Below are positions 13,610 through 60,234 of a DNA stretch of 64,000 nucleotides, piece after piece. Under the pieces are notes generated by a model. It saw only the letters and a program-made list of their open reading frames with translations. It had not been told where the DNA came from and searched no databases. A program made the translations under genes and the position numbers. The DNA is from an uncultured Phycisphaerales bacterium. Its GTDB lineage: Bacteria; Planctomycetota; Phycisphaerae; Tepidisphaerales; Tepidisphaeraceae. The stretch is taken from the NCBI GenBank assembly GCA_963758525.1, contig CAVWVQ010000003.1, forward strand, positions 2,656,001 through 2,720,000, written 5' to 3'. Within the stretch, counting starts at the first letter, position 1. The number at the start of each line of letters is the position of its first letter.

Positions 13610-13612
13610 TAA
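12779..13612 (+). pseudogene. IS5-family transposase, frameshifted near 13115 and 13300
   Basis: LRSGAPWRDMPERYGKW; VDGS; LGRSRGGWGSKFH (second frame); GDKGYS..YRKRSRIECAIGWLKECRRLGTRYEK (back in the first frame). Confidence 0.85.
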
Positions 13613-21212: not shown

Positions 21213-21324
21213 TGTCATGCCCGCTATCGACGGCGCAAACGCTTCGGAGTCGGGCATGATGTCGTTTAATGGATGCATAACGAATCGCGAGTCTCGCCAG
21301 CCCATTTCCGCGTAAACTCCATGC

Positions 21325-21579: not shown

Positions 21580-21606
21580 TCTGGTTCCATCGAACGACAA
21601 CGGAGA

Positions 21607-21887
21607 GTGCTGATGCGCCGCTCGCGTTTCTATGCCGGCATACTCATGGTGCTGTTGACGGCTGCTGGCATCACATCAGCGGACACCCTCAAGGTCGGGC
21701 CGGGCGAGAAGTTCGCCAAGCCTTCGCAGGCGTTTGCCGCCGCCGCGGAAGGCGATGTCATTGAAATCGCGGCCGGCGAATACAGGGGTGACGTCGCCAT
21801 CATTCAAACTAATAAGCTTCTGATTCGTGGGATGGGCAGACAACCCGTGAAAATCCCCGCCGATGGCAAGAACGCTGGCGGCAAGGC
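21607..21887 (+). pseudogene. Truncated 5' fragment of the beta-helix protein gene at 40303
   Basis: Identical to the 40303 ORF up to GKNAGGKA, then unrelated sequence. Confidence 0.85.
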
Positions 21888-27941: not shown

Positions 27942-27945
27942 GCAG

Positions 27946-28455
27946 TTACGACGCCATCCTCGCCTCTATACAGTCGCGCAGCGCCGCGCGCACGCGGTGC
28001 AGCGCGACATTAATCGCCCGAATATTGCTCCCCATCCGGCGGGCGATGTCATTGGGTTTGAGATTCTCCTGATAGCGCATTTCAACAAGATTCCGCGCCT
28101 TGTTCGCCAGCCGTTTGAGGCAGTGATCCATCGCATCGTGCAGGGGGCCCTGTTCGTGCTGAGCCTGGACGTGAGCCTCGGCCAGGGCCTGCAGGGCCTC
28201 CGAATCGAAGACCAACTTGTCGGCCGACTGACGCCGGTGCGAGTCCATCGCTTTGTTGCGGGCGATCCCGATGACCCAGGCATTGAACGACTGTGGCACG
28301 CTCCGCGACGGTTCGTGCGAAAGGACCGCCGCCGCCACTTCCTGCAAAACGTCCTGGGCGTCGTGGTAATCGGGAATCAGCAGTGATATGTAGGAATCAA
28401 CCAGCGGCTGAGCCGCCGCCCATTTCCTGGCGACATCTTCAATCGCGCTGTTCAT
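27946..28455 (-). CDS. ECF sigma-70 factor (cassette A)
   Basis: DAQDVLQEV, FNAWVIGIARNK, region 4 LVEMRY..IA..ALHRVRAALRDCIE. Confidence 0.92.
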   Translation of the reverse strand: MNSAIEDVARKWAAAQPLVDSYISLLIPDYHDAQDVLQEVAAAVLSHEPSRSVPQSFNAWVIGIARNKAMDSHRRQSADKLVFDSEALQALAEAHVQAQHEQGPLHDAMDHCLKRLANKARNLVEMRYQENLKPNDIARRMGSNIRAINVALHRVRAALRDCIEARMAS

Positions 28456-28520
28456 GCGGGAAGTCTCCCGAAATGCCTCAGACAGGTCCGAATCGCCTAA
28501 TCCATCATCCCTCGCCACTT

Positions 28521-34620: not shown

Positions 34621-34874
34621 CCAAGCTCATTAAACTCTTCGCCTGAGAGCACTTTGACCACGAGCCGGTCGTCCTGTGCATGGCTAAGGCCACCACCGGC
34701 GGCTATGGCGCGCTGATCACCACGTCCAAAAGTGCAAAGATGATCAAAGAAGAGTTCGGTCTCTATGACCTGCTCGTGTCCGCCGAAGAAGACGTCCTCA
34801 TGCTCTTCCCGGCCCTGACCACCACACGCCAAACTGCCCAGCGCGGTCTCGACATCTTCGAAAAGTCCCTGTAG
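34617..34874 (+). pseudogene. Collapsed fragment of a class III aminotransferase
   Basis: PVVLCMAKATTGGY (PLP-lysine-like motif) joined to LMLFPALT..GLDIFEKSL. Confidence 0.5.
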
Positions 34875-35113
34875 CCGCCCCAAAAATAAGTTATCCAGCC
34901 GTTTTTGCCGGCGCGACCGGCGTCACTGAACGATAAAAGCCCCGCTTGCAGACGGGCGGCAGCTTCAGAATCACACGCTCTCGCTGGGAGGCGGAAAAGA
35001 CGGAGCGGTTCTTTTGACGACGAGTGATGGTGATCCGGTTTGTACAGTCTCGATCCGGACTCGTTCCCGCTGATCTACGGCCCCGATGAGCAGCGTGACA
35101 GTGCAAGGCAGTC

Positions 35114-36029
35114 ATGATTAGGAATAATTCAATCCTGGTCGTTATGGTGATGATGCTGGGCCTGTGTCGCGCCAGCACGGCTGCGGAATTTTTGCATCCT
35201 GGGATTACGCTCTCGAAGGCGGATCTCGAGGCGCTCAAGGCCAATCTGAATACGGAGCCATGGAAGTCGGCGCTGCGGCGATCGGCCAGAGTCATGTGAT
35301 GACGCGCGACCAGATCATTCGCTATCTGGCCAATTGCGTGGTGCGAAACATGGTATTGCTGGTGAACGTCACTCCCGACCGTCACGGGGTAATTCCGGAA
35401 CTGGAACAGCAACGGCTGCGGGAAGTGGGCGTTTGGCTGGCGAAGGCAGGCAAGGCCGTCTACGGCACGCGCGGCGGTCCGTGGGAACCGGTCGACAGAC
35501 AGTACGGCTGCTGCTACAGCGGAAACACCGTCTACCTCCACCTGCTAAAAGCTTATAGCGGCGACGCATTGCGCGTGCCGCCACTGGGTGATTTGCGCGT
35601 CGTCAAAACATACAGCGTCATCGGCGGCAAGAGTCTGAATTTTGCAGCCGATGACAAAGGAGGCATGGTAGTCCGCGGCATCGATCGGATCGTTTCTCCG
35701 GTCGACACGATCGTCGGCGTGCAATTCAGCGGTGAGGGCAAAAGCGTCTGGGCGGCCGTAGCTGAGAGGTGACGATGAGACAGGTGACGAATGACAGTCG
35801 GCGTCGCGCTGATCGTCACGATCCGCGGCCCTCCCTCTACGTCAATGGCGAAGCGGCCGGAGAAAACACCCACATGGCGTTTTCCCCCATTTGCCTCGGT
35901 CCCACCACGGAGAACTGCACCGGCAAATCCCAATTTGTCCGAGACCCATATTTGAACGGCAAGGTGGACGACTTCCGCATCTATCGAGGGCCGCTGTCTG
36001 CCGGCGAGGTGAAATCGCTTGCGACATGA
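35114..36029 (+). pseudogene. Collapsed carbohydrate-active gene(s): signal peptide + FLHPG lyase-like start, GH29 alpha-L-fucosidase C-terminal part, LamG fragment
   Basis: EFLHPGIT; LLVNVTPDRHGVIP..RLREVGVWL..AVYGTRGGPW; LYVNG..LNGKVDDFRIYRGPLS, each in a different frame. Confidence 0.75.
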
Positions 36030-36585
36030 GCAGCGCCTGCGTGAGCGCCAAGAACAGGCCTACCGGGACGCGTTTCCCCGGTGGCTGATTCAGCCCGTTG
36101 CAGCTCCGCGGCGTCTGCTTGAGGCCCTCGAAGATGCGATCCGACGGGTGCGGTTTGACGGGCCGAGCTTTAACTCTGCCGACCGCGATCTGCTCCGCGC
36201 CGTCAAGCAGGGGCGATTCGGTTCCCTGTTCGCCGAACTGCCGCTCATTGGACGGGATCGCCAGCCTCCAGCGGTGAAGCTGATATACAAGCTTGGTCTG
36301 CAGCTTTACGGGCTGATGCCGGAGTCGGTGTTGTCCGACTTACTGATCGACAACGACGTGCGTGTGGTTCTCCAGCGAGATTACCTCGTCGCCGTCTGTT
36401 CCACGCTCGCGCATCGCTACCTACAGACGGGCAGGGCATACTATTCGCCGTACCGTCCGGTCCTTGAACTGGACGGCATCCGCAAGTTTGTGGCGTTCAC
36501 CCGGAACGCTATCCGCCAGGTGTATAACTTGTGCGTTCCGCAGTGGCGGACGTACATTGGTCACGAGGACGCTTTCGAAGGGTAA
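36019..36585 (+). CDS. Hypothetical protein (copy 1), possibly partial
   Basis: 188-aa ORF kept in both repeat copies. Confidence 0.45.
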   Translation: MRHEQRLRERQEQAYRDAFPRWLIQPVAAPRRLLEALEDAIRRVRFDGPSFNSADRDLLRAVKQGRFGSLFAELPLIGRDRQPPAVKLIYKLGLQLYGLMPESVLSDLLIDNDVRVVLQRDYLVAVCSTLAHRYLQTGRAYYSPYRPVLELDGIRKFVAFTRNAIRQVYNLCVPQWRTYIGHEDAFEG

Positions 36586-36676
36586 ACGACGTCTGTGTAG
36601 TGCCGCGCGCCGCGGCGACTCCAGGCTCGCTTTGACGAAGAGTTCGTTCATCGTCCTGTGAAATGAGCCTTGATGG

Positions 36677-37705
36677 TCAGCGAGGCCGCCCGGTGGCTCT
36701 GCGCTCGTCTGGGGAGGGTACGACGAACGCGCGCATTTGCGTCTCCTTGTCGGCCAGATAGCGATCCGGGGCGAGCTGAATCTGATCGTCCACCGTCAGC
36801 CTGCCGTCGATAAAGCCGCCAACAGCGTCGAACTCATAGGGAATGTGGAACCGAGCCGGGTCGGTGGGGTCGGGTTGGCCGGCGAACAGTCTGAGCTGAC
36901 CCGCGTAGTCCACCGTCACGTTGCCTTTTTGTTGCCCGCTGTTAGTGATCAAGGTCGCGCCGGCGTTCAGGAACAGGGAACAGTCGCTCAGGACGGCCAA
37001 ATCGGCGTCAGACGTTGCCGGCTTCAGCGCTACACCCACGAGTTGCCGATTGGTCCGCAACGCGTAATTGCAAAAGAGACTATCATCCGAACCGTACTTG
37101 TTAATCGAGCTGTGAACGAGCTCAGAACAATTCTGCGAGCACGAGACGTAGACGACTACCAGCCGCACCCCAGCGGCCGTGCGACACTGGTGCAGGACCA
37201 GCATCGTCGTATGCGGCTGATTGAACAGCGGGCCGGAATGAAATAGCGTGTCGGGCACCGTGACGGTGGTCGGCATGCTCGCGGTGAACGGCGGCGCCAG
37301 CGCGCCAACCGGTACCGACACCATCTCCTTTGGCCGGTTGATCGTGTCAAATTGGCAAATCTGGTTCACCGGCCCCGCGGCCATGAGGCGCCCGATTCCA
37401 TCGGGGTCCTCCGCGTACAACAGCGTCCCCGGCGGGGCGAGGTAATCCATGCACTGCTGCTGGGCCGGCAGATACGCCGCTCGAACGATCGCGCGTTGCG
37501 CTTGCACCTTTCGCTCGGCCTGCCGCCGCTGGAAATCCGCCCACTGCTGGCGAGCACAACCGTTAAGGCCGGGGCCGACAACATAGACGCCCAGCATGAC
37601 CGTGTTGATCAGGGTGAGCAGGAGCATTAGCCGAAACGATCGCCGGCTGACGCCGGACGTCGACGGTGCGTACTGGATCGGCGTGGACGTGTGACGCTCG
37701 CTCAC
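36677..37705 (-). CDS. Hypothetical membrane-anchored protein (copy 1)
   Basis: 342 aa with an N-terminal TM helix; C-terminal FAGQPDPTDPARFHIPY..IDGRL. Start overlaps the upstream stop. Confidence 0.7.
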   Translation of the reverse strand: MSERHTSTPIQYAPSTSGVSRRSFRLMLLLTLINTVMLGVYVVGPGLNGCARQQWADFQRRQAERKVQAQRAIVRAAYLPAQQQCMDYLAPPGTLLYAEDPDGIGRLMAAGPVNQICQFDTINRPKEMVSVPVGALAPPFTASMPTTVTVPDTLFHSGPLFNQPHTTMLVLHQCRTAAGVRLVVVYVSCSQNCSELVHSSINKYGSDDSLFCNYALRTNRQLVGVALKPATSDADLAVLSDCSLFLNAGATLITNSGQQKGNVTVDYAGQLRLFAGQPDPTDPARFHIPYEFDAVGGFIDGRLTVDDQIQLAPDRYLADKETQMRAFVVPSPDERRATGRPR

Positions 37706-38271
37706 TTTCCATCTCCCGCGGGGGGCGACTTGGGATCATAGGCGCCGCTCCGTGGGGTCGTGTGCGGATTTGCCTCGTGGTAGGCCTTGGGACTGACGCT
37801 CACGATCAGCGGCGTGCCGTGGTACTGGCCCAGTTTGATCTTTTCTTCGATTTCACGCATTCCACTGCGGGCGTCGAGGCGCACAAGCTCCCCAAGCTTC
37901 GCGTCCTCCGGCACGCTAAATGCCTGGAGCTTACTCAGATTGACCAGGTCGATGTGAAACGTGCACTGCCCTCGGTCCACCAGCGCCACCACCGTTATGA
38001 CGATCGTCTGCGCACCGTCGCTGGCCGACGGATACTTGCAGCCGCTGGTCGTGGGGCTGTTGGTGTCTTTGCCGGTTTGAAGGGTCACAAAGCCGTCGGG
38101 CGTTCCTTTCGGCAGCTCGATCCGGAACCGTTGCACGAGACAGGAATTGTCGCTCACGAGCGGCACCTCTGCCGTGAACTGGATCGGCTGAGTCGTCGCA
38201 GCCTGTCCTCCGGCAAATGCGTGTCCGGCGAAGAAAAGGCCGAGCAGGAGGGAAATGAAACGATGACGAAT
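37702..38271 (-). CDS. Hypothetical secreted protein (copy 1); canonical start codon absent
   Basis: The frame extends to IRHRFISLLLGLFFAGHAFAGGQAATTQP (signal peptide) after a GAGGAG RBS. Confidence 0.55.
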   Translation of the reverse strand: MRHRFISLLLGLFFAGHAFAGGQAATTQPIQFTAEVPLVSDNSCLVQRFRIELPKGTPDGFVTLQTGKDTNSPTTSGCKYPSASDGAQTIVITVVALVDRGQCTFHIDLVNLSKLQAFSVPEDAKLGELVRLDARSGMREIEEKIKLGQYHGTPLIVSVSPKAYHEANPHTTPRSGAYDPKSPPAGDGK

Positions 38272-38377
38272 ACTTTGCTCCTCGCAGAGGGACTGACCGT
38301 CAGAATCGCTTCATCACGCATATCATCCGGCTCTTTCAGACGCCAGCAACCCCCTCAGCCGCTCAGCCGCCGTCGAA

Positions 38378-38854
38378 TTAACGATACGTTTCCGTGAGAT
38401 GGCCGTTATCAGTCTGTGGCTCCGAAACACTGGCCGACTGGAAGCGCCATGCACTCATTTGCGAAATCAACGTCCATACTCCGCTGATCAGCAGTAGAGC
38501 GGGCGCGGAGGCGATCAAGGAGAGATGGTGATCAATGAACCAGTGAGATAGTTCTATGATGAACGAAGCAGTTCCGACGAGGCAGACGATCATGGCCAGC
38601 CGCCTGACCAGGGGCGGAGATTTCAGGAAGGCGTACAACACCGCGCCAGCGGCATAGGCGACGAGGTAAGCAAGGACCTGAGCGAGTGAGTATTCGCTGT
38701 GGTACTCGTAGCCCCATCCATTGCTGTATCCATACGAAAAAAAGGTCCAACTGAGATCCGAACGACCCAACGGGGCCGTGATGAGAGTAAACGCTGTGCA
38801 GGCCAGCAACAGGGCAACGAGGTGCAGGATAATGAAGATGGACCACCTTGTCAT
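38378..38854 (-). CDS. Hypothetical integral membrane protein (copy 1)
   Basis: About four hydrophobic segments. Confidence 0.65.
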   Translation of the reverse strand: MTRWSIFIILHLVALLLACTAFTLITAPLGRSDLSWTFFSYGYSNGWGYEYHSEYSLAQVLAYLVAYAAGAVLYAFLKSPPLVRRLAMIVCLVGTASFIIELSHWFIDHHLSLIASAPALLLISGVWTLISQMSAWRFQSASVSEPQTDNGHLTETYR

Positions 38855-39358
38855 AACAGCCTCACATCGCCTCGCAGGCTGCTATCGCGAGCGGGTGCGG
38901 AAGGATAAACTGCAATTCTTTGGCGACTGCGAGCCTTGCAACAGCTCGCGGGCTATTTACACAAATGCTTCTTTTGATGCGATGAATCGAACGTAGGGAG
39001 GCCGGGCGAAGTTCCACCACACCAATCCAAAAACCAGTTTTTGATACTGTGGGCGGCCAAGAAGGGCCACGAGCTAATCTTGGCTTTTGAAGCGGGGCCG
39101 CTTTGATGGATGCAATGGGCGCGGCGGTTAGGTTCATTGGTGGCGCGGTGGATACGCCGCGAACCAATGCGCCGCTGTTCCAATCGCTCGGCTTCGCGTG
39201 CTCTTCGGCACGTCGCGCTAGATCGTAGGGTACAGAGTTGGAAACCGTGTCCAGCGGCCGCTGAAAAATACGGCGGATTCCACCTGTTTCGGAGTAAGTA
39301 TTGGCGATGGAGTGCAGGCGACGGCGATGAAGTGATTGCCGCCCTCCTGGACGCCCAA

Positions 39359-39880
39359 TCACCTGGTTGCGCCCATCCCGAATTGGTCGAAGAAGGCTGC
39401 ATATGCGACTTTAATCATGTCGTACAGCGGGGCACAATCGAGGGATCGTTGATTCGCAAAGTACAGGGCGGCATACGGGCACTCATCTGCAGCTGGCAGC
39501 GCAAATGCTTCGGGGGGGATCGAGTTTAAAACTTGCTCATTGCATATGGATTCAAGTGCAGCACGATCATCCGTTGCGTCGAGCCCAGACATGAAGACAG
39601 CGAAAGCATGAAGGGGCGGCTGCTCTTCATCTTCGGCTTGGGACAGGCGCATGTAACCAGCCGTATCTCCGCACCTGAAAAACGTGGCGGCGAGCCAACC
39701 ATCGGCGACGATCCTAAACGTTCCGTGTTCGAGCAAAGCCGACTTCATTTCCACGTACACTTCTTCGAGCTTGTCTGCGCTGCAGGCTGTCGCTCGCGGA
39801 TCGACAATTCTTCGGCAGCCCGGAGGATAAAAGAGCTTTCCGTGAAAATGAAATACCATGCTATACGCACATCGTGCCAT
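39359..39880 (-). CDS. Hypothetical protein (copy 1)
   Basis: 173-aa ORF conserved in both copies. Confidence 0.55.
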   Translation of the reverse strand: MARCAYSMVFHFHGKLFYPPGCRRIVDPRATACSADKLEEVYVEMKSALLEHGTFRIVADGWLAATFFRCGDTAGYMRLSQAEDEEQPPLHAFAVFMSGLDATDDRAALESICNEQVLNSIPPEAFALPAADECPYAALYFANQRSLDCAPLYDMIKVAYAAFFDQFGMGATR

Positions 39881-40020
39881 GCTTGACGACTGTTTTCGAG
39901 CTTTCAGCAGTTCCGCAGAGTTGAATTGACGTCAAAGCACGCATATTCGACCGCACGGCATTTAACAGATGCAAAACTAATCCTGATTCCCGCCGGGCCG
40001 TTTCGACGTAGACTCCATGC

Positions 40021-40275
40021 ATGCGATCCGATGAGGTATCAGCCTGGCAAGCGCAGAAAATCTCCTCGTGGCTCACGCCAACCCTCGTGAGGCTGGTCAA
40101 GCTGCACGCCCGCATGGTCGTGAATGACTTCTCCGATAGCGATCCGTTGATGGCGAAAGTGGTAGCGGCCAAAGAGGCCGTGCGCGAATTGCAAGTGCAG
40201 TTGCATGATTTGGAAGCGAAGCGGCAACGGTCAGAAGAAGCGCCGACATGGTTGAAGGCGCGTGGCGTTGATTAA
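40021..40275 (+). CDS. Hypothetical 84-aa protein (copy 2)
   Basis: See 21325. Confidence 0.6.
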   Translation: MRSDEVSAWQAQKISSWLTPTLVRLVKLHARMVVNDFSDSDPLMAKVVAAKEAVRELQVQLHDLEAKRQRSEEAPTWLKARGVD

Positions 40276-40302
40276 TCTGGTTCCATCGAACGACAACGGA
40301 GA

Positions 40303-41480
40303 GTGCTGATGCGCCGCTCGCGTTTCTATGCCGGCATACTCATGGTGCTGTTGACGGCTGCTGGCATCACATCAGCGGACACCCTCAAGGTCGGGCCGGG
40401 CGAGAAGTTCGCCAAGCCTTCGCAGGCGTTTGCCGCCGCCGCGGAAGGCGATGTCATTGAAATCGCGGCCGGCGAATACAGGGGTGACGTCGCCATCATT
40501 CAAACTAATAAGCTTCTGATTCGTGGGATGGGCAGACAACCCGTGAAAATCCCCGCCGATGGCAAGAACGCTGGCGGCAAGGCCATCTGGATCGCCGCCG
40601 GTGGTGACATCACCGTCGAAAACATTGAGTTTTCCGGTGCCCGCGTCCCTGACCGCAATGGCTCAGGTATTCGGGCGGAAGGCCTCAATCTCACCCTGCG
40701 CAACTGCCGATTCTACGATTGCGAGAATGGCCTGCTCGGCGGCAACGGCGAGATGCTCATTGAAGGCTGCGAATTTGCGCGTTGTGGCCCCGTCGCACAG
40801 CCGGCAACCCATTCGCTCTATATCGGCGAGAAATGCACCAAGCTGGTCTTCCAGTACAACTACTCCACCGACGCGATCGAGGGTCATCTGCTGAAGAGCC
40901 GGGCTCAGGAAAACTGGATCCTCTACAACCGTCTGACTGACGAAAACGGCACCGGCAGCGCTGTGGCCGACTTTCCCAACGGGGGTTACGTCGTCATGGT
41001 CGGCAATATCCTCCAGAAGGGGGCAAACGCTCAGAACACGCGCGTGATCGCTTACGGCATGGAGGGGATCAAGTACAAGCGGAACGCTCTATTCGTGGTG
41101 AACAATACCATGGTTTACGAGAACCGGCGCGCGGCGCGTTCTTCGTCAACGTGCAGCATGTGGCGGGGGATTTTGTGCCGGTGATTCGCAACAATCTCTG
41201 CGTCGGCAGGATCCCGCTGACCAACAGCCCCAAGCCGGACGCCGGCGGCAACCTATTGCTAAAGTCTCTCGATGAAGCCGGCTTTGTGTCCCCACGCGGG
41301 TACGACTACCACCTCAAGCACGGCTCGCCCGCGATCGACAGGGCCATCGACCCTGGCAAGGCCGACAATTTCGACCTGACGCCAGCGTTCCAATACCTTC
41401 ACCCCTGCGCCAGCGAGAAGCGTGCGACGGCCGGCCCGCTCGATATTGGGGCATTTGAGTTCGGGAGGAAAGAACCTTAA
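40303..41480 (+). pseudogene. Secreted right-handed parallel beta-helix protein, frameshift near 41130
   Basis: GDVIEIAAGEY; ITVENIEFSGARVPDRNGSGIR; GHLLKSRA; C-terminal DYHL..GSPAID..LDIGAFE in the next frame. Confidence 0.8.
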
Positions 41481-48229: not shown

Positions 48230-48294
48230 CTGCAGGCAGTATGATGCGTCGATGACGTTGGCCTTGCGTCCCAGAGACGCATTCGAGTGTCCGA

Positions 48295-48819
48295 ATGAAT
48301 GAATCAATCGAGGATGTTGCCAGGAAATGGGCTGCGGCACAGCCGCTGGTTGCTTCGTTTATTTCCTTGATTGTATCGGACTTCCATAACGCACAAGACG
48401 TGCTGCAGGAGGTCGCGGCGGCGGTGTTGTCTCACGACCCATCCCGCAGCGTCCCCGAGTCGTTTAACGCGTGGGTCATTGGGATCGCCCGTCATAAGGC
48501 GTTGGATTTTCATCGCCGTCAGACCCGCGACAAACTGGTCTTTGACTCAGAGGCGCTGTCGATCCTCGCCGAGGTGCATCAGGAGGTTCGCCAGGACCAG
48601 GGGCCGCGCCGCGAGGCCATGGAGCATTGTCTCAAGCGGCTGGCTTCCAAGGCGCGCCGGCTCATCGAACTGCGCTACCAGGATGATATGAAGCCGGGCG
48701 CGATCGCCGGGGCGATGGGGAGTAACGTCAGCGCGGTGAAGGTCGCGCTCCACCGCGTGCGGGCGGCGCTGCGGGTCTGTATTGAGGCGCGGCTCAGTTC
48801 TGGAATCGAGCTGACATGA
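48295..48819 (+). CDS. ECF sigma-70 factor (cassette B)
   Basis: Close paralog of 27946; NAQDVLQEV, FNAWVIGIAR. Confidence 0.92.
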   Translation: MNESIEDVARKWAAAQPLVASFISLIVSDFHNAQDVLQEVAAAVLSHDPSRSVPESFNAWVIGIARHKALDFHRRQTRDKLVFDSEALSILAEVHQEVRQDQGPRREAMEHCLKRLASKARRLIELRYQDDMKPGAIAGAMGSNVSAVKVALHRVRAALRVCIEARLSSGIELT

Positions 48820-50411
48820 AGGACCCGATGGCACTTCTCGACGAACACTTCGACGGCATCCTCGATGAAGCCGGGGCGGCAGAGTTGTCGGCATGGGTGA
48901 AGCAGAACCGTCGCAACGCCCGCCTTCTGGTCGATGCCGCGCGGTTGCACCAGGATCTTCGCGAACTGTTCCTTGGCCGCCGGCTTTTGGAAGAGGCGGC
49001 ATCATCAGGCACTTCGCTCCATGACGCGATGATCCTCCCCGCTATATCGCTTCCAGCCAATGATGAAGCGGAGGCGCAGACCCCTCCGGTGGCAACGGTA
49101 CCGACTCGCATTGAACCATCGACGTCGCGTTTGCGTCATCGGTACTGGAAAATCGCCGCTGCGATCGCGATCCCGATTCTGGCCGGCATCGTACTCTGGT
49201 CAGTCCTTCGCCCCGCCAAACCCGGCGGAGCTCTGGTCGCCAGCGCCTCGGCCGTTTGGGACAATGCAGTTCAGCCACCACACGACGGGCAGCCCCTTCC
49301 TGCTGGACCGCTGCAACTGGCCAGCGGGCTGGCCGAGATACGCCTTAATAACGGCGTTTCACTCGTCGTTGAAGGCCCGGCGCATTTCCAGCTTCAATCT
49401 CAGAACAGCGTCGCGCTTGAACTGGGCAAAATTACGGTAAGCGTACCTGCCACTGCCCACGGATTTACCATTCAGACTCCCTCCTCGCGCACCGTCGATC
49501 TGGGGACAGAGTTCGGCGTCATCGTGGACGACGCCGGAAATACCGAAACGCATGTCATCCGCGGCACGGTTGAAGTAACGCCCACCGCCGGTGGCGCAGC
49601 GCTGCTCTTCTCGGCAGACCACGCGGCACGCGTCGATGTCGGCGCCACTTCGGCGCAAACGATTGAGTGCCACGCGGGGAATTTTGTGCAGGACGTCCCG
49701 GCAATCGACCTTGTGGACGTCATCGCCGGCGGAGACGGGACGCAGGGACGGTCAAATAGCGGGATCGATATGGCCACTGGCAAAGCCTTGCCGGTGAAAG
49801 TCCCGGCAGGCATGAACCCCGGGCCCGAACCAACGATTCGCGGAGACGGAAAGTTCCACCCCTGCCCCTCCCTGCCATTGGGTGTCTTCATCCCGCATGG
49901 TGGGCCGACGCCTGACACAGTCGACGCTGCCGGCCACCAGTATATTTTCCCGCCCACGAGCAACCTTGCGTATCAAAACATTTGGCCCGGATCCGCCCAG
50001 CATCTGCTGGGTGGCGATTCGCCTACCACTGGTATGACCAAAGAGAATGGCTACCCGGCGCCGGGTCACCGATTACTCGAACTTCATGCCAATAAAGGAA
50101 TCACGTTCGATCTCAATGCACTGCGCACCGCTCATCCCGACCGGCCATTCTCGCATCTCGTCGCCCGTTGCGTGAATATGAATGCATATGCCGAACCAGT
50201 GATCGGTGCAATAGTCTCCGATCGATCGGAGCTTTGGATATTTGTGGATGGCGATCTCCGTGCACACAAGCTGATTCATCGCATGGACCCGCCATTCGAT
50301 GTTGACGTTCCCATCGAACCCGCTTCGCATTTTTTGACATTGGTGGTGAGCGACGGAGGAGATGGCTTCGACTGGGACGTGGTGTCGTTGGGTGATCCAA
50401 GGTTAAAATGA
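48816..50411 (+). CDS. FecR-domain anti-sigma factor with an NPCBM-like domain (cassette B)
   Basis: ATGA overlap with sigma. Close paralog of 26334. Confidence 0.85.
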   Translation: MKDPMALLDEHFDGILDEAGAAELSAWVKQNRRNARLLVDAARLHQDLRELFLGRRLLEEAASSGTSLHDAMILPAISLPANDEAEAQTPPVATVPTRIEPSTSRLRHRYWKIAAAIAIPILAGIVLWSVLRPAKPGGALVASASAVWDNAVQPPHDGQPLPAGPLQLASGLAEIRLNNGVSLVVEGPAHFQLQSQNSVALELGKITVSVPATAHGFTIQTPSSRTVDLGTEFGVIVDDAGNTETHVIRGTVEVTPTAGGAALLFSADHAARVDVGATSAQTIECHAGNFVQDVPAIDLVDVIAGGDGTQGRSNSGIDMATGKALPVKVPAGMNPGPEPTIRGDGKFHPCPSLPLGVFIPHGGPTPDTVDAAGHQYIFPPTSNLAYQNIWPGSAQHLLGGDSPTTGMTKENGYPAPGHRLLELHANKGITFDLNALRTAHPDRPFSHLVARCVNMNAYAEPVIGAIVSDRSELWIFVDGDLRAHKLIHRMDPPFDVDVPIEPASHFLTLVVSDGGDGFDWDVVSLGDPRLK

Positions 50412-50424: not shown

Positions 50425-53181
50425 ATGCGGAAACGAGCACGCGATTTTACTCTTGTTGAGCCGCAGCGCTGCCTCAGGCGAAGATCCAAATCAGCTTTCA
50501 TCTCTGAAGGGGCTTCTTGTCAACGGCGAGACGGCTTGATTGCTAAGTTCCGTTCATTGCTCTCTCCGATCAGCTTCGCGCACTCCCCCTGCGCCCTTGG
50601 CGGGGAGGCTAACGAGGCGGGGGTTTGGGGGCAGAGCCCCCAAGTCTTTGTCGTTCTCGGCGGAACCGTGGCTGCCATCCGGCACCGCGCGGGCGGCGCG
50701 ATGCGGCGGTTGAATTCATCTCTATGCGGTCATCGGACGGACGGGTCGCAATGCCAGGCCGTGTGTTCCGAGCCGAATAAAACCTTGTTCGCGTCAACCG
50801 GGCCGAATTCACACTGTCGCAGTCACCAGCAGAACCCGAATCCGACGCCAGTGGCGTCCGATTCGAACCAATGCCTGCCGGGCCGAATGAAGCCGAGTCG
50901 CGGTCTCCAGATTGACGAGACATCGTCTTGCATGGCTGCAAGAACTATTGATGTCATAAGCGTTCCGCCGAACCGCTGGTCATGCCAGGATCATCTCCTC
51001 TTCTTGTTTGACAGGTTGTTGCTTAGCAGATTGTTGCTTGAGCCGGGCCTTGTTGGCCGCCCGCTCGTGTCCGGTGGGCTCCTGGCCCTGGTAGGCCGTC
51101 CCGTCGCGGACCATGGCAAAGAGGACACGCAGCAGGCGTCTTCCCATCGCGACGTTCGCCTTGGGCTTGACCATGTGTCCGATCAGCCGCTGGCGGATCG
51201 CCTCCTGCTTCGCGTCGGAGCGGCAGAGGGTGACCGCGGCCTTGCACAACGCCCAGCGCAGCGTGGCGCTGCCCGCCTTGGTGATGTGACCCGACTGGGT
51301 CCGGCCGGCCGACTCCTGGTTGTCGGGAGTCAATCCCGCCCAGAACTCGAGGGTGTCGGCGTTGGGAAAACGGGAGAACTCGCCGATCTCCGCGGCGATG
51401 ATGCACGCCCAGATCTCGTCGATTCCCGGCACGCTCTTGAGAATCGCAATCAGGGAGGCGAATCGCCGGTCGCGGTTGGCAAAAATGATTTTCCTGCGCA
51501 GGCATTCCCGCTGTCGCTCGATCAGGCAGACCAGGTCCAGGAAGTTGCCGAAGGCTTCGCGCTGCACGTCCTTGAGCAGATCGCCATTGGCCAGCAGCCA
51601 TTTCTGGGCGCCGGCGCCGTCCAGCTTGGGACCGCGAATGTTGGCGGCCAGGAGCATCGACCGCATGGCGTGCTTGGCGCGGGTGAGGGTGCGGGACAAA
51701 TGCCGCCAGTGCCGGCCGAGCTTGCGGAGCTGCATCACTGCTTCGGGGGCGATCCATCCCAGCGGGCACTCCCCGCGGGAGAGGCGCTGGGCGATGTCGG
51801 CCGCGTCCTTGCGATCGGTCTTGCGCCGCTTACCCCGGAGGTTGGACAACTGCGTCGCGTCGGCGATCTCGATCTTGTCCACGCAGGAGCGGAAGCGGTC
51901 GATGAACCACTCGACAAAGCCGACGGCTTCCACTGCCAGGCGGCTGGGACGCGGCAACGCCAGCATCCATTTTTCGATGCGGTCAACGCACTTGGTGTCA
52001 CAGGTCAGCGCGGCGATCTGCGTCCCCGAAGCATCGACAGCACACAGCGAGACGGTACACTTATGCAAATCCACGCCGACGAACGCGGCGTACGAAACAG
52101 GCACATCAGACATAACAAACTCCGTGTTAGGGACCAAGGGAACTTAGAACACTCCCGGAAGCGTAACGGCTTCCGCAGGCCCCTTCACGGTTTTACGCTG
52201 GTGGAACTCCTCGTTGTTATTGGAATCATCGCTGTCTTGATTGCATTATTGCTTCCGTCCCTCCAAAAAGCGCGACAGCAGGCCAGGTACGTCAGATGGC
52301 AGGCTTTCAGCCGTGATTTGTCGATGGATCCCAGCGTCATCGTCCATTACGACATGCAGAATGATGCGGGAACCTCCTTCCTGACGAATATGGCCATGGG
52401 TAATGCCCGAGACCCATCAATGGTCCCGTCCAATCTCGACGCGCAGATTCTCGACTGGTCGCAGAGCCCCTTTCCGCTGCTCTCGGTCAACTATCCCGGG
52501 CAGGTGGCCGCACTATGGTCGAATAGCGGGCGATTCCCGGGAAAGCCGGCCCTGTCGTTCAACCCAACGCTCACACCCAACGCCATGGCCTACATCGGAC
52601 AGCGGAACAATGGAATCGGTCGGATCGCCAACATGCTGCGCAAAACGCAGGCCTACACGCTTTTGTACTGGGTCTATGTGCCCCGTCCGGCTGTTGACAA
52701 CCAGCTCTTTGTGTATTGGGCTGGCAAGGGCAATTCTGCACAGATCGTGGTCACCACGGATATGGCCTGGGGCGGGAACGTCAACGCCTCGCAGGGGAGC
52801 GGTTTTGGCGGTTCCCCTACCATGACCTCATTTTCCACCGGAACAGGAGCGATTCCATTCACCTATGGGCAAGACTCGCGGTGGAATCTGTTTGCCTTCA
52901 CCAGCGATCGCAGATCTGGAGTTGCCAAGCTCTATCAGAACGGCGTGCTGGTCGCCTACCAGCAGTCGGGCAACCAGTTGATCGTCGGCCCTGACGTGGC
53001 GTATCCAACCGGCAGCGATCCTGGCGCATTGGTCTTTGGAAATTGGCCGAACCACGGTGAGAACAATATCGTCTGCGACGAATTTGGACTTTTCGACTCT
53101 GATCTTTCTCCCAACGACCCATTGATACTGGGCACCATTTCGCCACGCTTTTTCCCGATGTACACTGTGGGCGTGAATTAA
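50425..53181 (+). CDS. Type IV prepilin-like protein with a C-terminal LamG-like domain, carrying an in-frame IS1111-type insertion (host parts 50425-50500 and 52196-53181)
   Basis: Reconstructed native N-terminus [48 protein letters not shown]. LamG-like [24 protein letters not shown]. Confidence 0.85.
50514..50979 (-). ncRNA. Predicted seekRNA/bridge-RNA region of the IS1111-type element (exact ends unknown)
   Basis: Noncoding region 3' of the transposase with hairpins (about 50626-50641, 50813-50823, 50838-50864, 50926-50943) and segments matching the target and donor junctions. Confidence 0.6.
50980..52113 (-). CDS. IS110-family DEDD transposase/recombinase
   Basis: VGVDLHK, AVEAVG and KTDRKDA (DEDD); [30 protein letters not shown]. 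Confidence 0.95.
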
Positions 53182-54326: not shown

Positions 54327-54978
54327 CCCAAATAACTCGCGTTCGCCTGATGCATTCCCGTTCGTCATGGTTTACAGACTGACCCCTGCATCGGAAAGGT
54401 TAAGAATTGTTGAAGACGCAATTGTAGCGCAGGAAACAGTAGCATCAGGACAGACGCTGAGGGTTATGCTCCCGTCCTAGATAGGAAGCTGGGCGACCCT
54501 CTTCGCGCCTCCCGAATTTTCGGCGCACCCCCACAATTCATGATAAAACATCCGCTCGACAAGGCTTAGCCGATCACAGGAGAATTGAGCCGATGGGCAC
54601 CACTACCGCAGTTTCAGCGAAGCTAACCTGGAATGGCGTGCCTGCGAAGAAACATGGCGACTCCTTTGCCGACGCGACAAGAAATACCGCGTTTTCGGTG
54701 GAGTTCAAGCAGTGCTCTTTTTCACTAAAGTCCCTGTAGCCGCCCCAAAAATAAGTTATCCAGCCGTTTTTGCCGGCGCGACCGGCGTCACTGAACGATA
54801 AAAGCCCCGCTTGCAGACGGGCGGCAGCTTCAGAATCACACGCTCTCGCTGGGAGGCGGAAAAGACGGAGCGGTTCTTTTGACGACGAGTGATGGTGATC
54901 CGGTTTGTACAGTCTCGATCCGGACTCGTTCCCGCTGATCTACGGCCCCGATGAGCAGCGTGACAGTGCAAGGCAGTC

Positions 54979-55894
54979 ATGATTAGGAATAATTCAATCC
55001 TGGTCGTTATGGTGATGATGCTGGGCCTGTGTCGCGCCAGCACGGCTGCGGAATTTTTGCATCCTGGGATTACGCTCTCGAAGGCGGATCTCGAGGCGCT
55101 CAAGGCCAATCTGAATACGGAGCCATGGAAGTCGGCGCTGCGGCGATCGGCCAGAGTCATGTGATGACGCGCGACCAGATCATTCGCTATCTGGCCAATT
55201 GCGTGGTGCGAAACATGGTATTGCTGGTGAACGTCACTCCCGACCGTCACGGGGTAATTCCGGAACTGGAACAGCAACGGCTGCGGGAAGTGGGCGTTTG
55301 GCTGGCGAAGGCAGGCAAGGCCGTCTACGGCACGCGCGGCGGTCCGTGGGAACCGGTCGACAGACAGTACGGCTGCTGCTACAGCGGAAACACCGTCTAC
55401 TTCCACCTGCTAAAAGCTTATAGCGGCGACGCATTGCGCGTGCCGCCACTGGGTGATTTGCGCGTCGTCAAAACATACAGCGTCATCGGCGGCAAGAGTC
55501 TGAATTTTGCAGCCGATGACAAAGGAGGCATGGTAGTCCGCGGCATCGATCGGATCGTTTCTCCGGTCGACACGATCGTCGGCGTGCAATTCAGCGGTGA
55601 GGTCAAAAGCGTCTGGGCGGCCGTAGCTGAGAGGTGACGATGAGACAGGTGACGAATGACAGTCGGCGTCGCGCTGATCGTCACGATCCGCGGCCCTCCC
55701 TCTACGTCAATGGCGAAGCGGCCGGAGAAAACACCCACATGGCGTTTTCCCCCATTTGCCTCGGTCCCACCACGGAGAACTGCACCGGCAAATCCCAATT
55801 TGTCCGAGACCCATATTTGAACGGCAAGGTGGACGACTTCCGCATCTATCGAGGGCCGCTGTCTGCCGGCGAGGTGAAATCGCTTGCGACATGA
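54979..55894 (+). pseudogene. Collapsed lyase-like / GH29 / LamG fragments (copy 2)
   Basis: Same lesions as 35114-36029. Confidence 0.75.
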
Positions 55895-56450
55895 GCAGCG
55901 CCTGCGTCAGCGCCAAGAACAGGCCTACCGGGACGCGTTTCCCCGGTGGCTGATTCAGCCCGTTGCAGCTCCGCGGCGTCTGCTTGAGGCCCTCGAAGAT
56001 GCGATCCGACGGGTGCGGTTTGACGGGCCGAGCTTTAACTCTGCCGACCGCGATCTGCTCCGCGCCGTCAAGCAGGGTCGATTCGGTTCCCTGTTCGCCG
56101 AACTGCCGCTCATTGGACGGGATCGCCAGCCTCCAGCGGTGAAGCTGATATACAAGCTTGGTCTGCAGCTTTACGGGCTGATGCCGGAGTCGGTGTTGTC
56201 CGACTTACTGATCGACAACGACGTGCGTGTGGTTCTCCAGCGAGATTACCTCGTCGCCGTCTGTTCCACGCTCGCGCATCGCTACCTACAGACGGGCAGG
56301 GCATACTATTCGCCGTACCGTCCGGTCCTTGAACTGGACGGCATCCGCAAGTTTGTGGCGTTCACCCGGAACGCTATCCGCCAGGTGTATAACTTGTGCG
56401 TTCCGCAGTGGCGGACGTACATTGGTCACGAGGACGCTTTCGAAGGGTAA
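55884..56450 (+). CDS. Hypothetical protein (copy 2)
   Basis: Duplicate of 36019. Confidence 0.45.
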   Translation: MRHEQRLRQRQEQAYRDAFPRWLIQPVAAPRRLLEALEDAIRRVRFDGPSFNSADRDLLRAVKQGRFGSLFAELPLIGRDRQPPAVKLIYKLGLQLYGLMPESVLSDLLIDNDVRVVLQRDYLVAVCSTLAHRYLQTGRAYYSPYRPVLELDGIRKFVAFTRNAIRQVYNLCVPQWRTYIGHEDAFEG

Positions 56451-56541
56451 ACGACGTCTGTATAGTGCCGCGCACCGCGGCGACTCCAGGCTCGCTTTGA
56501 CGAAGAGTTCGTTCATCGTCCTGTGAAATGAGCCTTGATGG

Positions 56542-57570
56542 TCAGCGAGGCCGCCCGGTGGCTCTGCGCTCGTCTGGGGAGGGTACGACGAACGCGCGCA
56601 TTTGCGTCTCCTTGTCGGCCAGATAGCGATCCGGGGCGAGCTGAATCTGATCGTCCACCGTCAGCCTGCCGTCGATAAAGCCGCCAACAGCGTCGAACTC
56701 ATAGGGAATGTGGAACCGAGCCGGGTCGGTGGGGTCGGGTTGGCCGGCGAACAGTCTGAGCTGACCCGCGTAGTCCACCGTCACGTTGCCTTTTTGTTGC
56801 CCGCTGTTAGTGATCAAGGTCGCGCCGGCGTTCAGGAACAGGGAACAGTCGCTCAGAACGGCCAAATCGGCGTCAGACGTTGCCGGCTTCAGCGCTACAC
56901 CCACGAGTTGCCGATTGGTCCGCAACGCGTAATTGCAAAAGAGACTATCATCCGAACCGTACTTGTTAATCGAGCTGTGAACGAGCTCAGAACAATTCTG
57001 CGAGCACGAGACGTAGACGACTACCAGCCGCACCCCAGCGGCCGTGCGACACTGGTGCAGGACCAGCATCGTCGTATGCGGCTGATTGAACAGCGGGCCG
57101 GAATGAAATAGCGTGTCGGGCACCGTGACGGTGGTCGGCATGCTCGCGGTGAACGGCGGCGCCAGCGCGCCAACCGGTACCGACACCATCTCCTTTGGCC
57201 GGTTGATCGTGTCAAATTGGCAAATCTGGTTCACCGGCCCCGCGGCCATGAGGCGCCCGATTCCATCGGGGTCCTCCGCGTACAACAGCGTCCCCGGCGG
57301 GGCGAGGTAATCCATGCACTGCTGCTGGGCCGGCAGATACGCCGCTCGAACGATCGCGCGTTGGGCTTGCACCTTTCGCTCGGCCTGCCGCCGCTGGAAA
57401 TCCGCCCACTGCTGGCGAGCACAACCGTTAAGGCCGGGGCCGACAACATAGACGCCCAGCATGACCGTGTTGATCAGGGTGAGCAGGAGCATTAGCCGAA
57501 ACGATCGCCGGCTGACGCCGGACGTCGACGGTGCGTACTGGATCGGCGTGGACGTGTGACGCTCGCTCAC
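56542..57570 (-). CDS. Hypothetical membrane-anchored protein (copy 2)
   Basis: Duplicate of 36677. Confidence 0.7.
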   Translation of the reverse strand: MSERHTSTPIQYAPSTSGVSRRSFRLMLLLTLINTVMLGVYVVGPGLNGCARQQWADFQRRQAERKVQAQRAIVRAAYLPAQQQCMDYLAPPGTLLYAEDPDGIGRLMAAGPVNQICQFDTINRPKEMVSVPVGALAPPFTASMPTTVTVPDTLFHSGPLFNQPHTTMLVLHQCRTAAGVRLVVVYVSCSQNCSELVHSSINKYGSDDSLFCNYALRTNRQLVGVALKPATSDADLAVLSDCSLFLNAGATLITNSGQQKGNVTVDYAGQLRLFAGQPDPTDPARFHIPYEFDAVGGFIDGRLTVDDQIQLAPDRYLADKETQMRAFVVPSPDERRATGRPR

Positions 57571-58136
57571 TTTCCATCTCCCGCGGGGGGCGACTTGGGA
57601 TCATAGGCGCCGCTCCGTGGGGTCGTGTGCGGATTTGCCTCGTGGTAGGCCTTGGGACTGACGCTCACGATCAGCGGCGTGCCGTGGTACTGGCCCAGTT
57701 TGATCTTTTCTTCGATTTCACGCATTCCACTGCGGGCGTCGAGGCGCACAAGCTCCCCAAGCTTCGCGTCCTCCGGCACGCTAAATGCCTGGAGCTTACT
57801 CAGATTGACCAGGTCGATGTGAAACGTGCACTGCCCTCGGTCCACCAGCGCCACCACCGTTATGACGATCGTCTGCGCACCGTCGCTGGCCGACGGATAC
57901 TTGCAGCCGCTGGTCGTGGGGCTGTTGGTGTCTTTGCCGGTTTGAAGGGTCACAAAGCCGTCGGGCGTTCCTTTCGGCAGCTCGATCCGGAACCGTTGCA
58001 CGAGACAGGAATTGTCGCTCACGAGCGGCACCTCTGCCGTGAACTGGATCGGCTGAGTCGTCGCAGCCTGTCCTCCGGCAAATGCGTGTCCGGCGAAGAA
58101 AAGGCCGAGCAGGAGGGAAATGAAATGATGACGAAT
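57567..58136 (-). CDS. Hypothetical secreted protein (copy 2)
   Basis: Duplicate of 37702. Confidence 0.55.
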   Translation of the reverse strand: MRHHFISLLLGLFFAGHAFAGGQAATTQPIQFTAEVPLVSDNSCLVQRFRIELPKGTPDGFVTLQTGKDTNSPTTSGCKYPSASDGAQTIVITVVALVDRGQCTFHIDLVNLSKLQAFSVPEDAKLGELVRLDARSGMREIEEKIKLGQYHGTPLIVSVSPKAYHEANPHTTPRSGAYDPKSPPAGDGK

Positions 58137-58234
58137 ACTTTGCTCCTCGCAGAGGGACTGACCGTCAGAATCGCTTCATCACGCATATCATCCGGCTCTT
58201 TCAGACGCCAGCAACCCCCTCAGCCGCCGTCGAA

Positions 58235-58711
58235 TTAACGATACGTTTCCGTGAGATGGCCGTTATCAGTCTGTGGCTCCGAAACACTGGCCGACTGGAA
58301 GCGCCATGCACTCATTTGCGAAATCAACGTCCATACTCCGCTGATCAGCAGTAGAGCGGGCGCGGAGGCGATCAAGGAGAGATGGTGATCAATGAACCAG
58401 TGAGATAGTTCTATGATGAACGAAGCAGTTCCGACGAGGCAGACGATCATGGCCAGCCGCGTGACCAGGGGCGGAGATTTCAGGAAGGCGTACAACACCG
58501 CGCCAGCGGCATAGGCGACGAGGTAGGCAAGGACCTGAGCGAGTGAGTATTCGCTGTGGTACTCGTAGCCCCATCCATTGCTGTATCCATACGAAAAAAA
58601 GGTCCAACTGAGATCCGAACGACCCAACGGGGCCGTGATGAGAGTAAACGCTGTGCAGGCCAGCAACAGGGCAACGAGGTGCAGGATAATGAAGATGGGC
58701 CACCTTGTCAT
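58235..58711 (-). CDS. Hypothetical integral membrane protein (copy 2)
   Basis: Duplicate of 38378. Confidence 0.65.
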   Translation of the reverse strand: MTRWPIFIILHLVALLLACTAFTLITAPLGRSDLSWTFFSYGYSNGWGYEYHSEYSLAQVLAYLVAYAAGAVLYAFLKSPPLVTRLAMIVCLVGTASFIIELSHWFIDHHLSLIASAPALLLISGVWTLISQMSAWRFQSASVSEPQTDNGHLTETYR

Positions 58712-59216
58712 AACAGCCTCACATCGCCTCGCAGGCTGCTATCGCGAGCGGGTGCGGAAGGATAAACTACAATTCTTTGGCGACTGCGAGCCTTGCAACA
58801 GCCCGCGGGCTATTTTACACAAATGCTTCTTTTGAAGCGATGAATCGAATGTAGGGAGGCCGGGCGAAGTTCCACCACACCAATCCAAAGACCAGTTTTT
58901 GATACTGTGGGCGGCCAAGAAGCGCCACGAGCTAATCTTGGCTTTTGAAGCGGGGCCGCTTTGATGGATGCAATGGGCGCGGCGGTTAGGTTCATTGGTG
59001 GCGCGGTGGATACGCCGCGAACCAATGCGCCGCTGTTCCAATCGCTCGGCTTCGCGTGCTCTTCGGCACGTCGCGCTAGATCGTAGGGTACAGAGTTGGA
59101 AACCGTGTCCAGCGGCCGCTGAAAAATACGGCGGATTCCACCTGTTTCGGAGTAAGTATTGGCGATGGAGTGCAGGCGACGGCGATGAAGTGATTGCCGC
59201 CCTCCTGGACGCCCGA

Positions 59217-59738
59217 TCACCTGGTTGTGCCCATCCCGAATTGGTCGAAGAAGGCTGCATATGCGACTTTAATCATGTCGTACAGCGGGGCACAATCGAG
59301 GGATCGTTGATTCGCAAAGTACAGGGCGGCATACGGGCACTCATCTGCAGCTGGCAGCGCAAATGCTTCGGGGGGGATCGAGTTTAAAACTTGCTCATTG
59401 CATATGGATTCAAGTGCAGCACGATCATCCGTTGCGTCGAGCCCAGACATGAAGACAGCGAAAGCATGAAGGGGCGGCTGCTCTTCATCTTCGGCTTGGG
59501 ACAGGCGCATGTAACCAGCCGTATCTCCGCACCTGAAAAACGTGGCGGCGAGCCAACCGTCGGCGACGATCCTAAACGTTCCGTGTTCGAGCAAAGCCGA
59601 CTTCATTTCCACGTACACTTCTTCGAGCTTGTCTGCGCTGCAGGCTGTCGCTCGCGGATCGACAATTCTTCGGCAGCCCGGAGGATAAAAGAGCTTTCCG
59701 TGAAAATGAAATACCATGCTACGCGCACATCGTGCCAT
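59217..59738 (-). CDS. Hypothetical protein (copy 2)
   Basis: Duplicate of 39359. Confidence 0.55.
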   Translation of the reverse strand: MARCARSMVFHFHGKLFYPPGCRRIVDPRATACSADKLEEVYVEMKSALLEHGTFRIVADGWLAATFFRCGDTAGYMRLSQAEDEEQPPLHAFAVFMSGLDATDDRAALESICNEQVLNSIPPEAFALPAADECPYAALYFANQRSLDCAPLYDMIKVAYAAFFDQFGMGTTR

Positions 59739-59878
59739 GCTTGACGACTGTTTTCGAGCTTTCAGCAGTTCCGCAGAGTTGAATTGACGTCAAAGCACGC
59801 ATATTCGACCGCACGGCGTTTAACAGATGCAAAACTAATCCTGATTCCCGCCGGGCCGTTTCGACGTAGACTCCATGC

Positions 59879-60131
59879 ATGCGATCCGATGAGGTATCAG
59901 CCCGGCAAGCGCAGAAAATCTCCTCGTGGCTCACGCCAACCCTCGTGAGGCTGGTCAAGCTGCACGCCCGCATGGTCGTGAATGACTTCTCCGATAGCGA
60001 TCCGTTGATGGCGAAAGTGGTAGCGGCCAAAGAGGGTGCGCGAATTGCGCGTGGAGTTACATGATCTGGAGGCGGGGCGGCAACGGCCAGAAGAAGCGCC
60101 GACGTGGTTGAAGGCGCGTGGCGTTGATTAA
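59879..60131 (+). pseudogene. Frameshifted third copy of the 84-aa protein gene
   Basis: Matches 40021 but loses the frame after VVAAKE. Confidence 0.7.
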
Positions 60132-60234
60132 TCTGGTTCCATCGAACGACAACGGAGAGTGCTGATGCGCCGCTCGCGTTTCTATGCCGGCATACTCATG
60201 GTGCTGTTGTTGACAGTGACCTTCAACATCCCGG

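Follow-up and report, generated by a model that had tools for sequence, protein, structure and literature searches.

How can an RNA-guided mobile element live inside a large family of protein-coding genes? The question is raised by the window studied here, i.e., a stretch of 64,000 nucleotides (nt) from an uncultured Phycisphaerales bacterium of the family Tepidisphaeraceae (assembly GCA_963758525.1, contig CAVWVQ010000003.1, positions 2,656,001 to 2,720,000). At 50501 to 52195, on the minus strand, it holds an IS1111-type element of the IS110 family of insertion sequences, which is 1695 nt, or 565 codons, long and lies antisense in a prepilin-type gene. The genome has four copies of it with identical ends, 99-100% identity and a length of 1695 nt each. 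Their arrangement is probably best explained by guided antisense insertion of an element that keeps the host frame open and would be translated as a leader extension of about 565 residues, to be removed by prepilin peptidase.

The frame in question runs on the plus strand from 50425 to 53181. It has 918 codons, i.e., the 25 codons of the native leader, the 565 element codons and then the pilin helix and a LamG-like domain, and in all four copies it stays open across the entire element, beginning at the native pilin start. Relatives were sought by a genome scan, which gave 27 loci, mostly from Planctomycetota, and by a metagenome scan with a pattern for the donor loop of the predicted guide RNA, which gave at least 121 stretches; figures on relatives hold among the matches listed. 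Among those with a taxon label, the nearest by tree path is L003, a Tepidisphaerales metagenome-assembled genome, and viral contigs and plasmids searched for the element gave no match. The comparison of full-length relatives covers 68 distinct elements of 1548-1905 nt, 66 of them pilin-type by their guides and two retargeted (L010 and L070); their transposases are 56-100% identical and include near-duplicates, 65 of them falling into 44 clusters at 90% and 16 at 80%. Element length is divisible by three in 63 of the 68, and the pilin frame is free of stops in 61, all of them pilin-type (61 of 66); neither retargeted element has it open. In these 61 elements the antisense frame is open over 515-635 codons, and each of the other two frames of the same strand has 5-33 stops.

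Open antisense frames over GC-rich genes are not rare, and for this reason the non-coding ends carry the test. It was made on 90 of 97 distinct right ends, with seven left out as non-pilin (one of these, L095, has guides that are in fact pilin-type). The pilin frame has 22 stops in 9452 codons, as against 186-359 in the other five frames; its phase is identical in 86 of the 90 ends and it is stop-free in 85, across 36 different lengths (140-521 nt). When the RNA region is excluded and L095 counted, the 88 outer right ends hold 22 stops, all in six elements, where shuffled sequence gives 180.6 +/- 12.7. Substitutions in the outer right end fall evenly over the three codon positions (0.162/0.170/0.177); amino-acid selection leaves no trace there, as it should if the stretch were a disposable linker. 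Inside the transposase gene, the codons TTA, CTA and TCA, which would be antisense stops, number 4 in 22,687 codons of 63 pilin-type genes (L100 is short, and L063 and L068 were missed by the pattern) versus 32 in 6161 codons of 17 other IS110 genes; in host genes their frequency is 0.75% per codon. L010, which lies in another target gene, is 91% identical to the stop-free L106 and has uncompensated indels, 21 stops and a lost phase. Selection very probably keeps the pilin frame open.

The insertion sites are as uniform as the frame. All four copies are antisense and interrupt the motif A/G-F↓T-L-V/I-E at one and the same base (the arrow marks the insertion point), and nearly all relatives lie antisense at the prepilin motif G/A-F↓T-L-x-E. 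Upstream, 74 of 83 distinct flanks end in G-F or A-F, 67 of these with an in-frame ATG within 40 codons; downstream, 67 of 71 distinct flanks begin with T-L/M-x-E. The genome has 54 matches to the motif, and copies 3 and 4 are in consecutive pilin genes of a PilB/PilC/PilM/PilO cluster (type IV pilus or type II secretion). Tandem or abutting elements are present at the regenerated site in L071/L072, L091, L047, L048 and L095; such tandem copies arise because insertion regenerates a target at the element's end. In L047, L048 and L095 the neighbor is a different end, which also encodes PLHG-F, with synonymous changes. Natural retargeting is seen in L010, L078, L035/L152 and L070/L144: the site of L078 is a tRNA-like sequence ending a 10-tRNA array, L035/L152 lie beside a sequence resembling a tRNA T-arm, and the target gene of L010, by its motif, presumably encodes an Rpn-type nuclease.

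Leaders of other pilin-type genes offer further observations. Two genes of the same genome, L246 (G000:C3, ~687690-687732) and L247 (G000:C3, ~4773125-4773167), are without a transposase; their leaders end in RRPLHG-F and carry the element's left-end repeat and hairpin together with an ATG of their own. They are probable remnants of the element that now serve as leaders. In G369, pilin leaders contain an in-frame, GC-rich palindromic repeat at L187, L188, L191, L192, L200, L201, L205, L207 and L213 (10 of 30 motif hits, with one locus counted twice); leaders there tolerate inserts. Paired hits in G369 had suggested mini-elements; the ten loci inspected proved to be paralogous flanks, and 20 further regions entered only the count of leader palindromes.

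What would the pilin frame encode at the element's end? The terminal codons read as a basic leader, ...RRPLHG-F, and the predicted cleavage falls between positions 52191 and 52192 of the window. In the right-end set, the last 25 leader residues have on average 7.7 lysines and arginines and 0.6 aspartates and glutamates. The prepilin model TIGR02532 scores above its cut-off at residues 588-610 of the fused frame, and PF07963 is likewise above its cut-off on fused frames. The features of a class III signal peptide are all present, i.e., a hydrophilic leader ending in Gly or Ala, a hydrophobic helix of 20-25 residues and Glu5, except for the N-terminal position: the motif stands at about residue 589. 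The extension itself has no membrane-like segment, with a Hessa sum of +8.0 versus -3.9 for the pilin helix. The host has two matches to A24 prepilin peptidases above the cut-off, and a fused protein of 734 residues (P0001) is annotated in a database. Prepilin leaders vary in length and end in Gly or Ala, after which the peptidase cuts on the cytoplasmic side (PMC10191384). Outgroups that do not target pilin genes already have a similar donor end, which at the same time supplies a -10-like box; therefore, the Gly-Phe coding of this end may be co-opted. The native leader (50425-50499) also contains an earlier, degenerate motif, D-F-T-L-V-E, 18 codons before the real site.

The element itself is, by its sequence, an IS110-family member with the IS1111 layout. 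Its gene (50980 to 52113, minus strand) encodes a DEDD transposase/recombinase of 377 residues with the family's RuvC-like DEDD domain and C-terminal Tnp domain (PF01548 and PF02371); it scores 185 bits against NF033542 (cut-off 140), has motif residues D15, E62 and the D100/D103 region and a GLxP----SA motif at 260-270, and finds ISCro4 and IS621 as relatives in the PDB. As in the family at large, insertion in the four copies and in the relatives is specific for site and orientation, with no regular target duplication. The IS1111 group is recognized by subterminal inverted repeats of 7-17 bp, here a perfect 9-bp pair at 50505-50513 and 52179-52187, and by a long non-coding region 3' of the transposase, here 479 nt as compared to 82 nt upstream. 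Next to the right-end repeat, on the minus strand, lies a putative -35 box, TTGACA (50523-50518; whole feature 50505 to 50523), and the left-end repeat, on the plus strand, is followed by the donor end GGTTTTA (52179 to 52195), Gly-Phe-Thr in the pilin frame. Joined in a circle, the ends would place TAAAAC, contributed by the left end, 17 nt after TTGACA; the tandem junction of L071, scanned for a consensus promoter, gave no site. Donor and target have a single A in common at the crossover, with AC in the target as against AT in the donor. The right-end junctions of relatives are AT in 82 of 88 and AC in 6. A more distant relative, L029, has a transposase only 34% identical and an element of 1395 nt, yet it lies in the prepilin motif and ends in HG-F; its subfamily numbers 583 proteins at E <= 1e-60 (P0002-P0121 among the matches listed).

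The same ends have smaller features of their own. A hairpin at 52156-52175 recurs 5' of the transposase in relatives, its pairing conserved and its sequence changing, and the terminal repeat has an inner copy beside the transposase ribosome-binding site; both may control translation. A G/C-run motif in the outer right end (50619-50643), which we take to be akin to small palindromic repeats, is present in L003 too, and longer relatives have a different, shared block of ~250 nt at this position.

The guide for these insertions is very probably a bridge RNA encoded in the non-coding 3' region. Alignment and a consensus fold of 40 relatives place its predicted core at 50678 to 50923 on the minus strand; an Rfam scan of the core found no match (a single hit was far under threshold). 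It consists of four similar units on the transposase strand, in each of which a box precedes a guide that ends in AU or GU, with a conserved tail after it. Among at least 151 parsed donor-loop matches, which include the four copies of this genome, both target-loop units are present in 142, with 120 distinct loops. Unit 1 has the predicted left target guide, GGCUUCAU (50887 to 50895), which equals the Gly-Phe codons and is unpaired in the consensus fold; it covaries with the left flank, with 433 identities in 74 element-site pairs versus 374.5 +/- 7.8 in shuffled pairs. Unit 2 has the predicted right target guide, CAGUGU (50811 to 50816), complementary to the right flank: the first six target positions are paired in all four own sites, G-U/G-T wobble counted, and across 63 element-site pairs the seven positions are paired, wobble again allowed, in 63, 63, 43, 59, 47, 30 and 15. 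Its covariation is weaker than that of the left guide (286 vs 277 +/- 3.8, n=63, p=0.015). By analogy with IS621, where the structure shows handshake bases after two guides that overlap at the core (PMC11208158), the next bases, GAA (50808 to 50810), would occupy the handshake position; the G/A there adds nothing once the left guide is taken into account. The 3' strand of a stem inside the target-binding loop, together with a scaffold box, lies at 50824 to 50833 and its partner at ~50875-50883; in the 40 of 92 parsed RNAs that were aligned, 89.4% of the cells of this helix are paired, 73 with a two-sided change, a result equaled in 0 of 500 shuffles, and slid registers score far below.

Units 3 and 4 concern the donor. 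The predicted left donor guide, GGUUUUAU (50777 to 50784), equals the element end 52189-52195 plus a T, a match expected by chance in 0.3% of cases; this guide was fixed by the scan pattern, and for this reason the set of relatives cannot test its covariation. The predicted right donor guide, AGAGAU with a GAA handshake (50715 to 50723), matches the element end, and L029 shows a joint change of right end and unit 4, to A↓GCTAT and AUAGCU, respectively (one contrast). With these assignments all four guides end at the crossover. As for retargeted relatives, the available flanks match the guides on both sides in L010 and on the left in L144, L035/L152 and L078.

Part of this layout had been read from the letters of the window alone. 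The original prediction placed a seek/bridge RNA here, and rightly so: it lies downstream of an IS1111-type IS110 transposase, and all five strings that it named are where it put them. It took two of these, GGTTTTAT and AGAGAT as RNA, for the left and right donor guides, which they likely are, and called this the weaker half of its proposal. The reverse holds: in 5000 dinucleotide shuffles of the right-end body, ATAAAACC arises with a chance of 0.3%, ATCTCT with 12.8% and both together with 0.06%, whereas of the strings chosen as target matches TTCAC appears in 54% of shuffles and CACCAGC in 5.3%, with one or another 7-mer of the empty site present in 52%. The circle junction that it foresaw, GGTTTTATCTCT, is observed directly as the junction of tandem copies in L071/L072 and L091, the only setting in which elements are seen end to end. 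The prediction overlooked that the pilin frame reads through the element and that a prepilin cleavage site is re-created.

The target half fares differently. It held that GCUGGUG and then GUGAA (CACCAGC and TTCAC on the plus strand) are the target guides and together tile the empty site, a reading for which there are real points: GCUGGUG matches the flank of this copy at seven of seven positions, the top-then-bottom strand order fits IS1111 seekRNAs (PMC11187229), and GUGAA covaries to some extent with the left flank (332 vs 321.8 +/- 3.1, p=0.002). Yet the tiling is not exact, the element (50501-52195) sharing one A with the target, and GCUGGUG, which is the stem's 3' strand plus an invariant scaffold box, is paired in a covarying helix and itself does not covary with insertion sites across relatives (234 vs 237 +/- 4.4 shuffled). 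Its full match is confined to this copy; the other three read GTTGGTG, ACTGATC and ACTGATC, the last two matching at four of seven positions. GUGAA does cover the handshake position and the final two bases of the right target guide; the GAA after both right guides accounts for the prediction's TTCAC, and the handshake G/A adds nothing beyond the left guide, which lies at 50887-50895, outside the segments it considered. A small ACTG/CAGT hairpin between the two strings is absent from the consensus fold, and the earlier pair would start 5' at the crossover, where the donor pair ends 3'. A plus-strand RNA, which would give that pair the polarity of IS621, was rejected because the donor guides would then run reversed. 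That GCUGGUG and GUGAA are the true target guides is thus very improbable.

With these parts the cycle may be pictured as follows. The element would excise as a circle whose joined ends form the putative promoter TTGACA-17-TAAAAC; the circle would express transposase and bridge RNA and recombine at the shared A, with the bridge RNA guiding antisense insertion into prepilin-type genes at their G/A-F↓T-L-x-E codons. The host transcript would then run antisense through the element, and the ribosome would make the native leader, 565 further residues and G-F-T-L-x-E; the pilin helix would insert in the membrane with the basic stretch inside, and prepilin peptidase would cut at the re-created G-F, releasing a normal mature pilin. 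We infer each of these activities from the arrangement described above: that the RNA is expressed and processed, that the circle has a promoter, that the fusion is translated, inserted in the membrane and cleaved, and that the pilin works. Removal by prepilin peptidase would be the likeliest reason for selection to keep the frame, and cleavage of the long fusion is reasonably likely to be the main route.

Several observations weigh against this account. Five of the 66 full-length pilin-type elements are not open (L002, L082, L084, L095 and L100); in a low-GC lineage (L113, L134, L137 and L095), with three members in pilin-like sites, a stop comes early and the phase is shifted; and in L029, L002, L221 and L084 a stop near the left end is followed by an ATG. 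In the assembly, the host gene of copy 2 has a frameshift beyond residue 36 and the platform gene close to copies 3 and 4 is split; of 30 downstream genes in which a stop is visible, 7 are shorter than 80 residues. Three relatives have a membrane-like segment (Hessa sum <= 0) near the start of the extension, and the literature searched held no precedent for the processing of a leader of more than 500 residues. As to guidance, kinship inflates the permutation tests of guide-site covariation; tree-independent pairs point in the same direction (3.9 vs 0.3 and 3.8 vs 0.0), being too few for significance (median p 0.22 and 0.125), covariation of the right guide is weak, and the right flank of L070 is mismatched to its own guide. 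Finally, antisense in-register stops are absent from 205 of 1688 long host genes (12%) and from 7 of 17 control IS110 genes, one of which is the pilin-targeting L029.

The last counts favor the view that high G+C content, antisense codon bias and common descent left the frame open by accident and that the insertions do no more than knock out redundant pilin paralogues, as do the 54 motif matches in the genome, the broken host genes and the donor end being a -10-like box already similar in outgroups. This view is nevertheless hard to credit in the face of non-coding right ends that keep phase and remain stop-free over 36 lengths, of shuffled sequence with eightfold more stops and of a retargeted sister without the frame. 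Scarcely more credible is an accessory protein with a function of its own, released by cleavage: the frame is open over 515-635 codons in 61 elements and the 734-residue P0001 was called as a protein, but the start codon is supplied by the host, the outer right end has no codon-position bias, lengths vary freely in multiples of three and retargeted elements lose the frame. A more serious, if still rather unlikely, proposal is that the open frame avoids polarity and the working pilin comes from internal restart in the left end, with the fusion a tolerated by-product; the restart codon could be an ATG or GTG opposite the histidine of the transposase DLH motif, 45 codons upstream, or a nearer ATG. 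The stop-then-ATG forms point to restart rather than fusion: L029 has one stop with an ATG immediately after it and a 34-residue leader, and L002, L221 and L084 have their stop 5' of the ATG at -45. The low-GC lineage has its stop near codon 12, with an ATG in the open frame two bases on, and two pilin genes of this genome have left-end-like leaders with an ATG of their own. Together with the five pilin-type elements that are not open, the early stops, the membrane-like segments and the broken host genes, these forms favor restart in some lineages. As a general account it meets the 61 of 66 pilin-type elements without a stop, because of which the fusion must be made by ribosomes from the native start, and a phase kept to the exact pilin frame; moreover, the 12 commonest upstream sequences show no clear ribosome-binding motif, and the DLH histidine codon is not enriched for CAT (16/60 vs 124/379 elsewhere). 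Selection for an ATG opposite this histidine was discarded on the latter count. Fusion followed by prepilin-peptidase cleavage remains the preferred explanation.

Elsewhere, the window has other repeats. A direct duplication of 5.5 kb (99.2% identity) occupies 34862-40353 and 54727-60209, and a 0.6-kb repeat (96%) lies at 21265-21887 and 39961-40583. A paralogous cassette of extracytoplasmic function (ECF) sigma factor and FecR-like genes is present in inverted orientation at 26336-28459 and 48291-50409, with an uninterrupted pilin-type gene near it at 25671 (minus strand). A 924-bp element at 12688-13611, bounded by perfect terminal inverted repeats of 22 nt and with its transposase-like gene spread over two frames, is presumably IS5-like.

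How does the element compare with known systems? The arrangement is not described in the literature searched, with ISfinder and most subscription journals outside the search, and a term search of the PMC11208160 supplements gave nothing on it among the matches listed for the accessible part. The closest relatives are IS1111-group elements, e.g., ISEc11, ISKpn4 and ISPa11 (PMC11187229; PMC11208160), which share the DEDD and Tnp transposase, subterminal repeats, the long non-coding 3' end, a promoter motif at the junction, the top-then-bottom guide order, a single site in a single orientation and natural reprogramming; the present element has 9-bp perfect repeats and a 377-residue transposase. 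The group's targets studied so far are repetitive extragenic palindromes (REP), attC and short linear sites, as opposed to a conserved protein-coding motif here, and in their published descriptions, as far as accessible, neither a full-length antisense frame nor a re-created protease site appears. IS621 (PMC11208158; PMC13626964) is alike in its two loops, with the left guide for the bottom strand and the right one for the top; its RNA lies upstream rather than downstream, its core is a CT dinucleotide where only an A is common to target and donor here, and, unlike in IS621, each guide here follows a repeated box. Taken alone, the bridge RNA adds a member to a known class; its four units are cleanly laid out, and its natural retargeting offers examples useful for engineering.

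The fate of the insertion sets the element further apart. In-frame insertions of miniature inverted-repeat transposable elements (MITEs) and palindromic repeats (PMC3184786) also fuse repeats with host genes; these are short and non-autonomous and stay in the protein, whereas the present element is autonomous, 1.4-1.9 kb long, overlaps transposase, guide RNA and leader layers and is predicted to be cut off. IStrons (PMC4227781) are alike in that insertion is predicted to be harmless through removal after transcription or translation.

Inteins are mobile elements removed at the protein level. No self-splicing ribozyme or protein-splicing domain was detected here by Rfam or, on the fused frames, by Pfam and intein families. 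In contrast to both IStrons and inteins, removal would be by a host peptidase, with one cut and no re-ligation, and restricted to cleavable leaders. On balance, we consider it somewhat likely that this is a third route to harmlessness inside a gene, beside RNA and protein splicing: a 1.4-1.9 kb element disguised as a leader, excised by a host peptidase, able to re-enter its regenerated site, as in tandem arrays, and with an end that can persist as a permanent leader. Three layers of information, i.e., transposase, guide RNA and a stop-free antisense frame, share one sequence. Pilin genes that carry such elements may be wrongly annotated as disrupted, and two ideas become testable, processing of leaders of more than 500 residues by prepilin peptidase and selection for processing of planctomycete pilin-like genes. 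If leader mimicry is true, it would explain how an RNA-guided element lives inside a large family of coding genes, as a host-protease-dependent analogue of IStrons and inteins.

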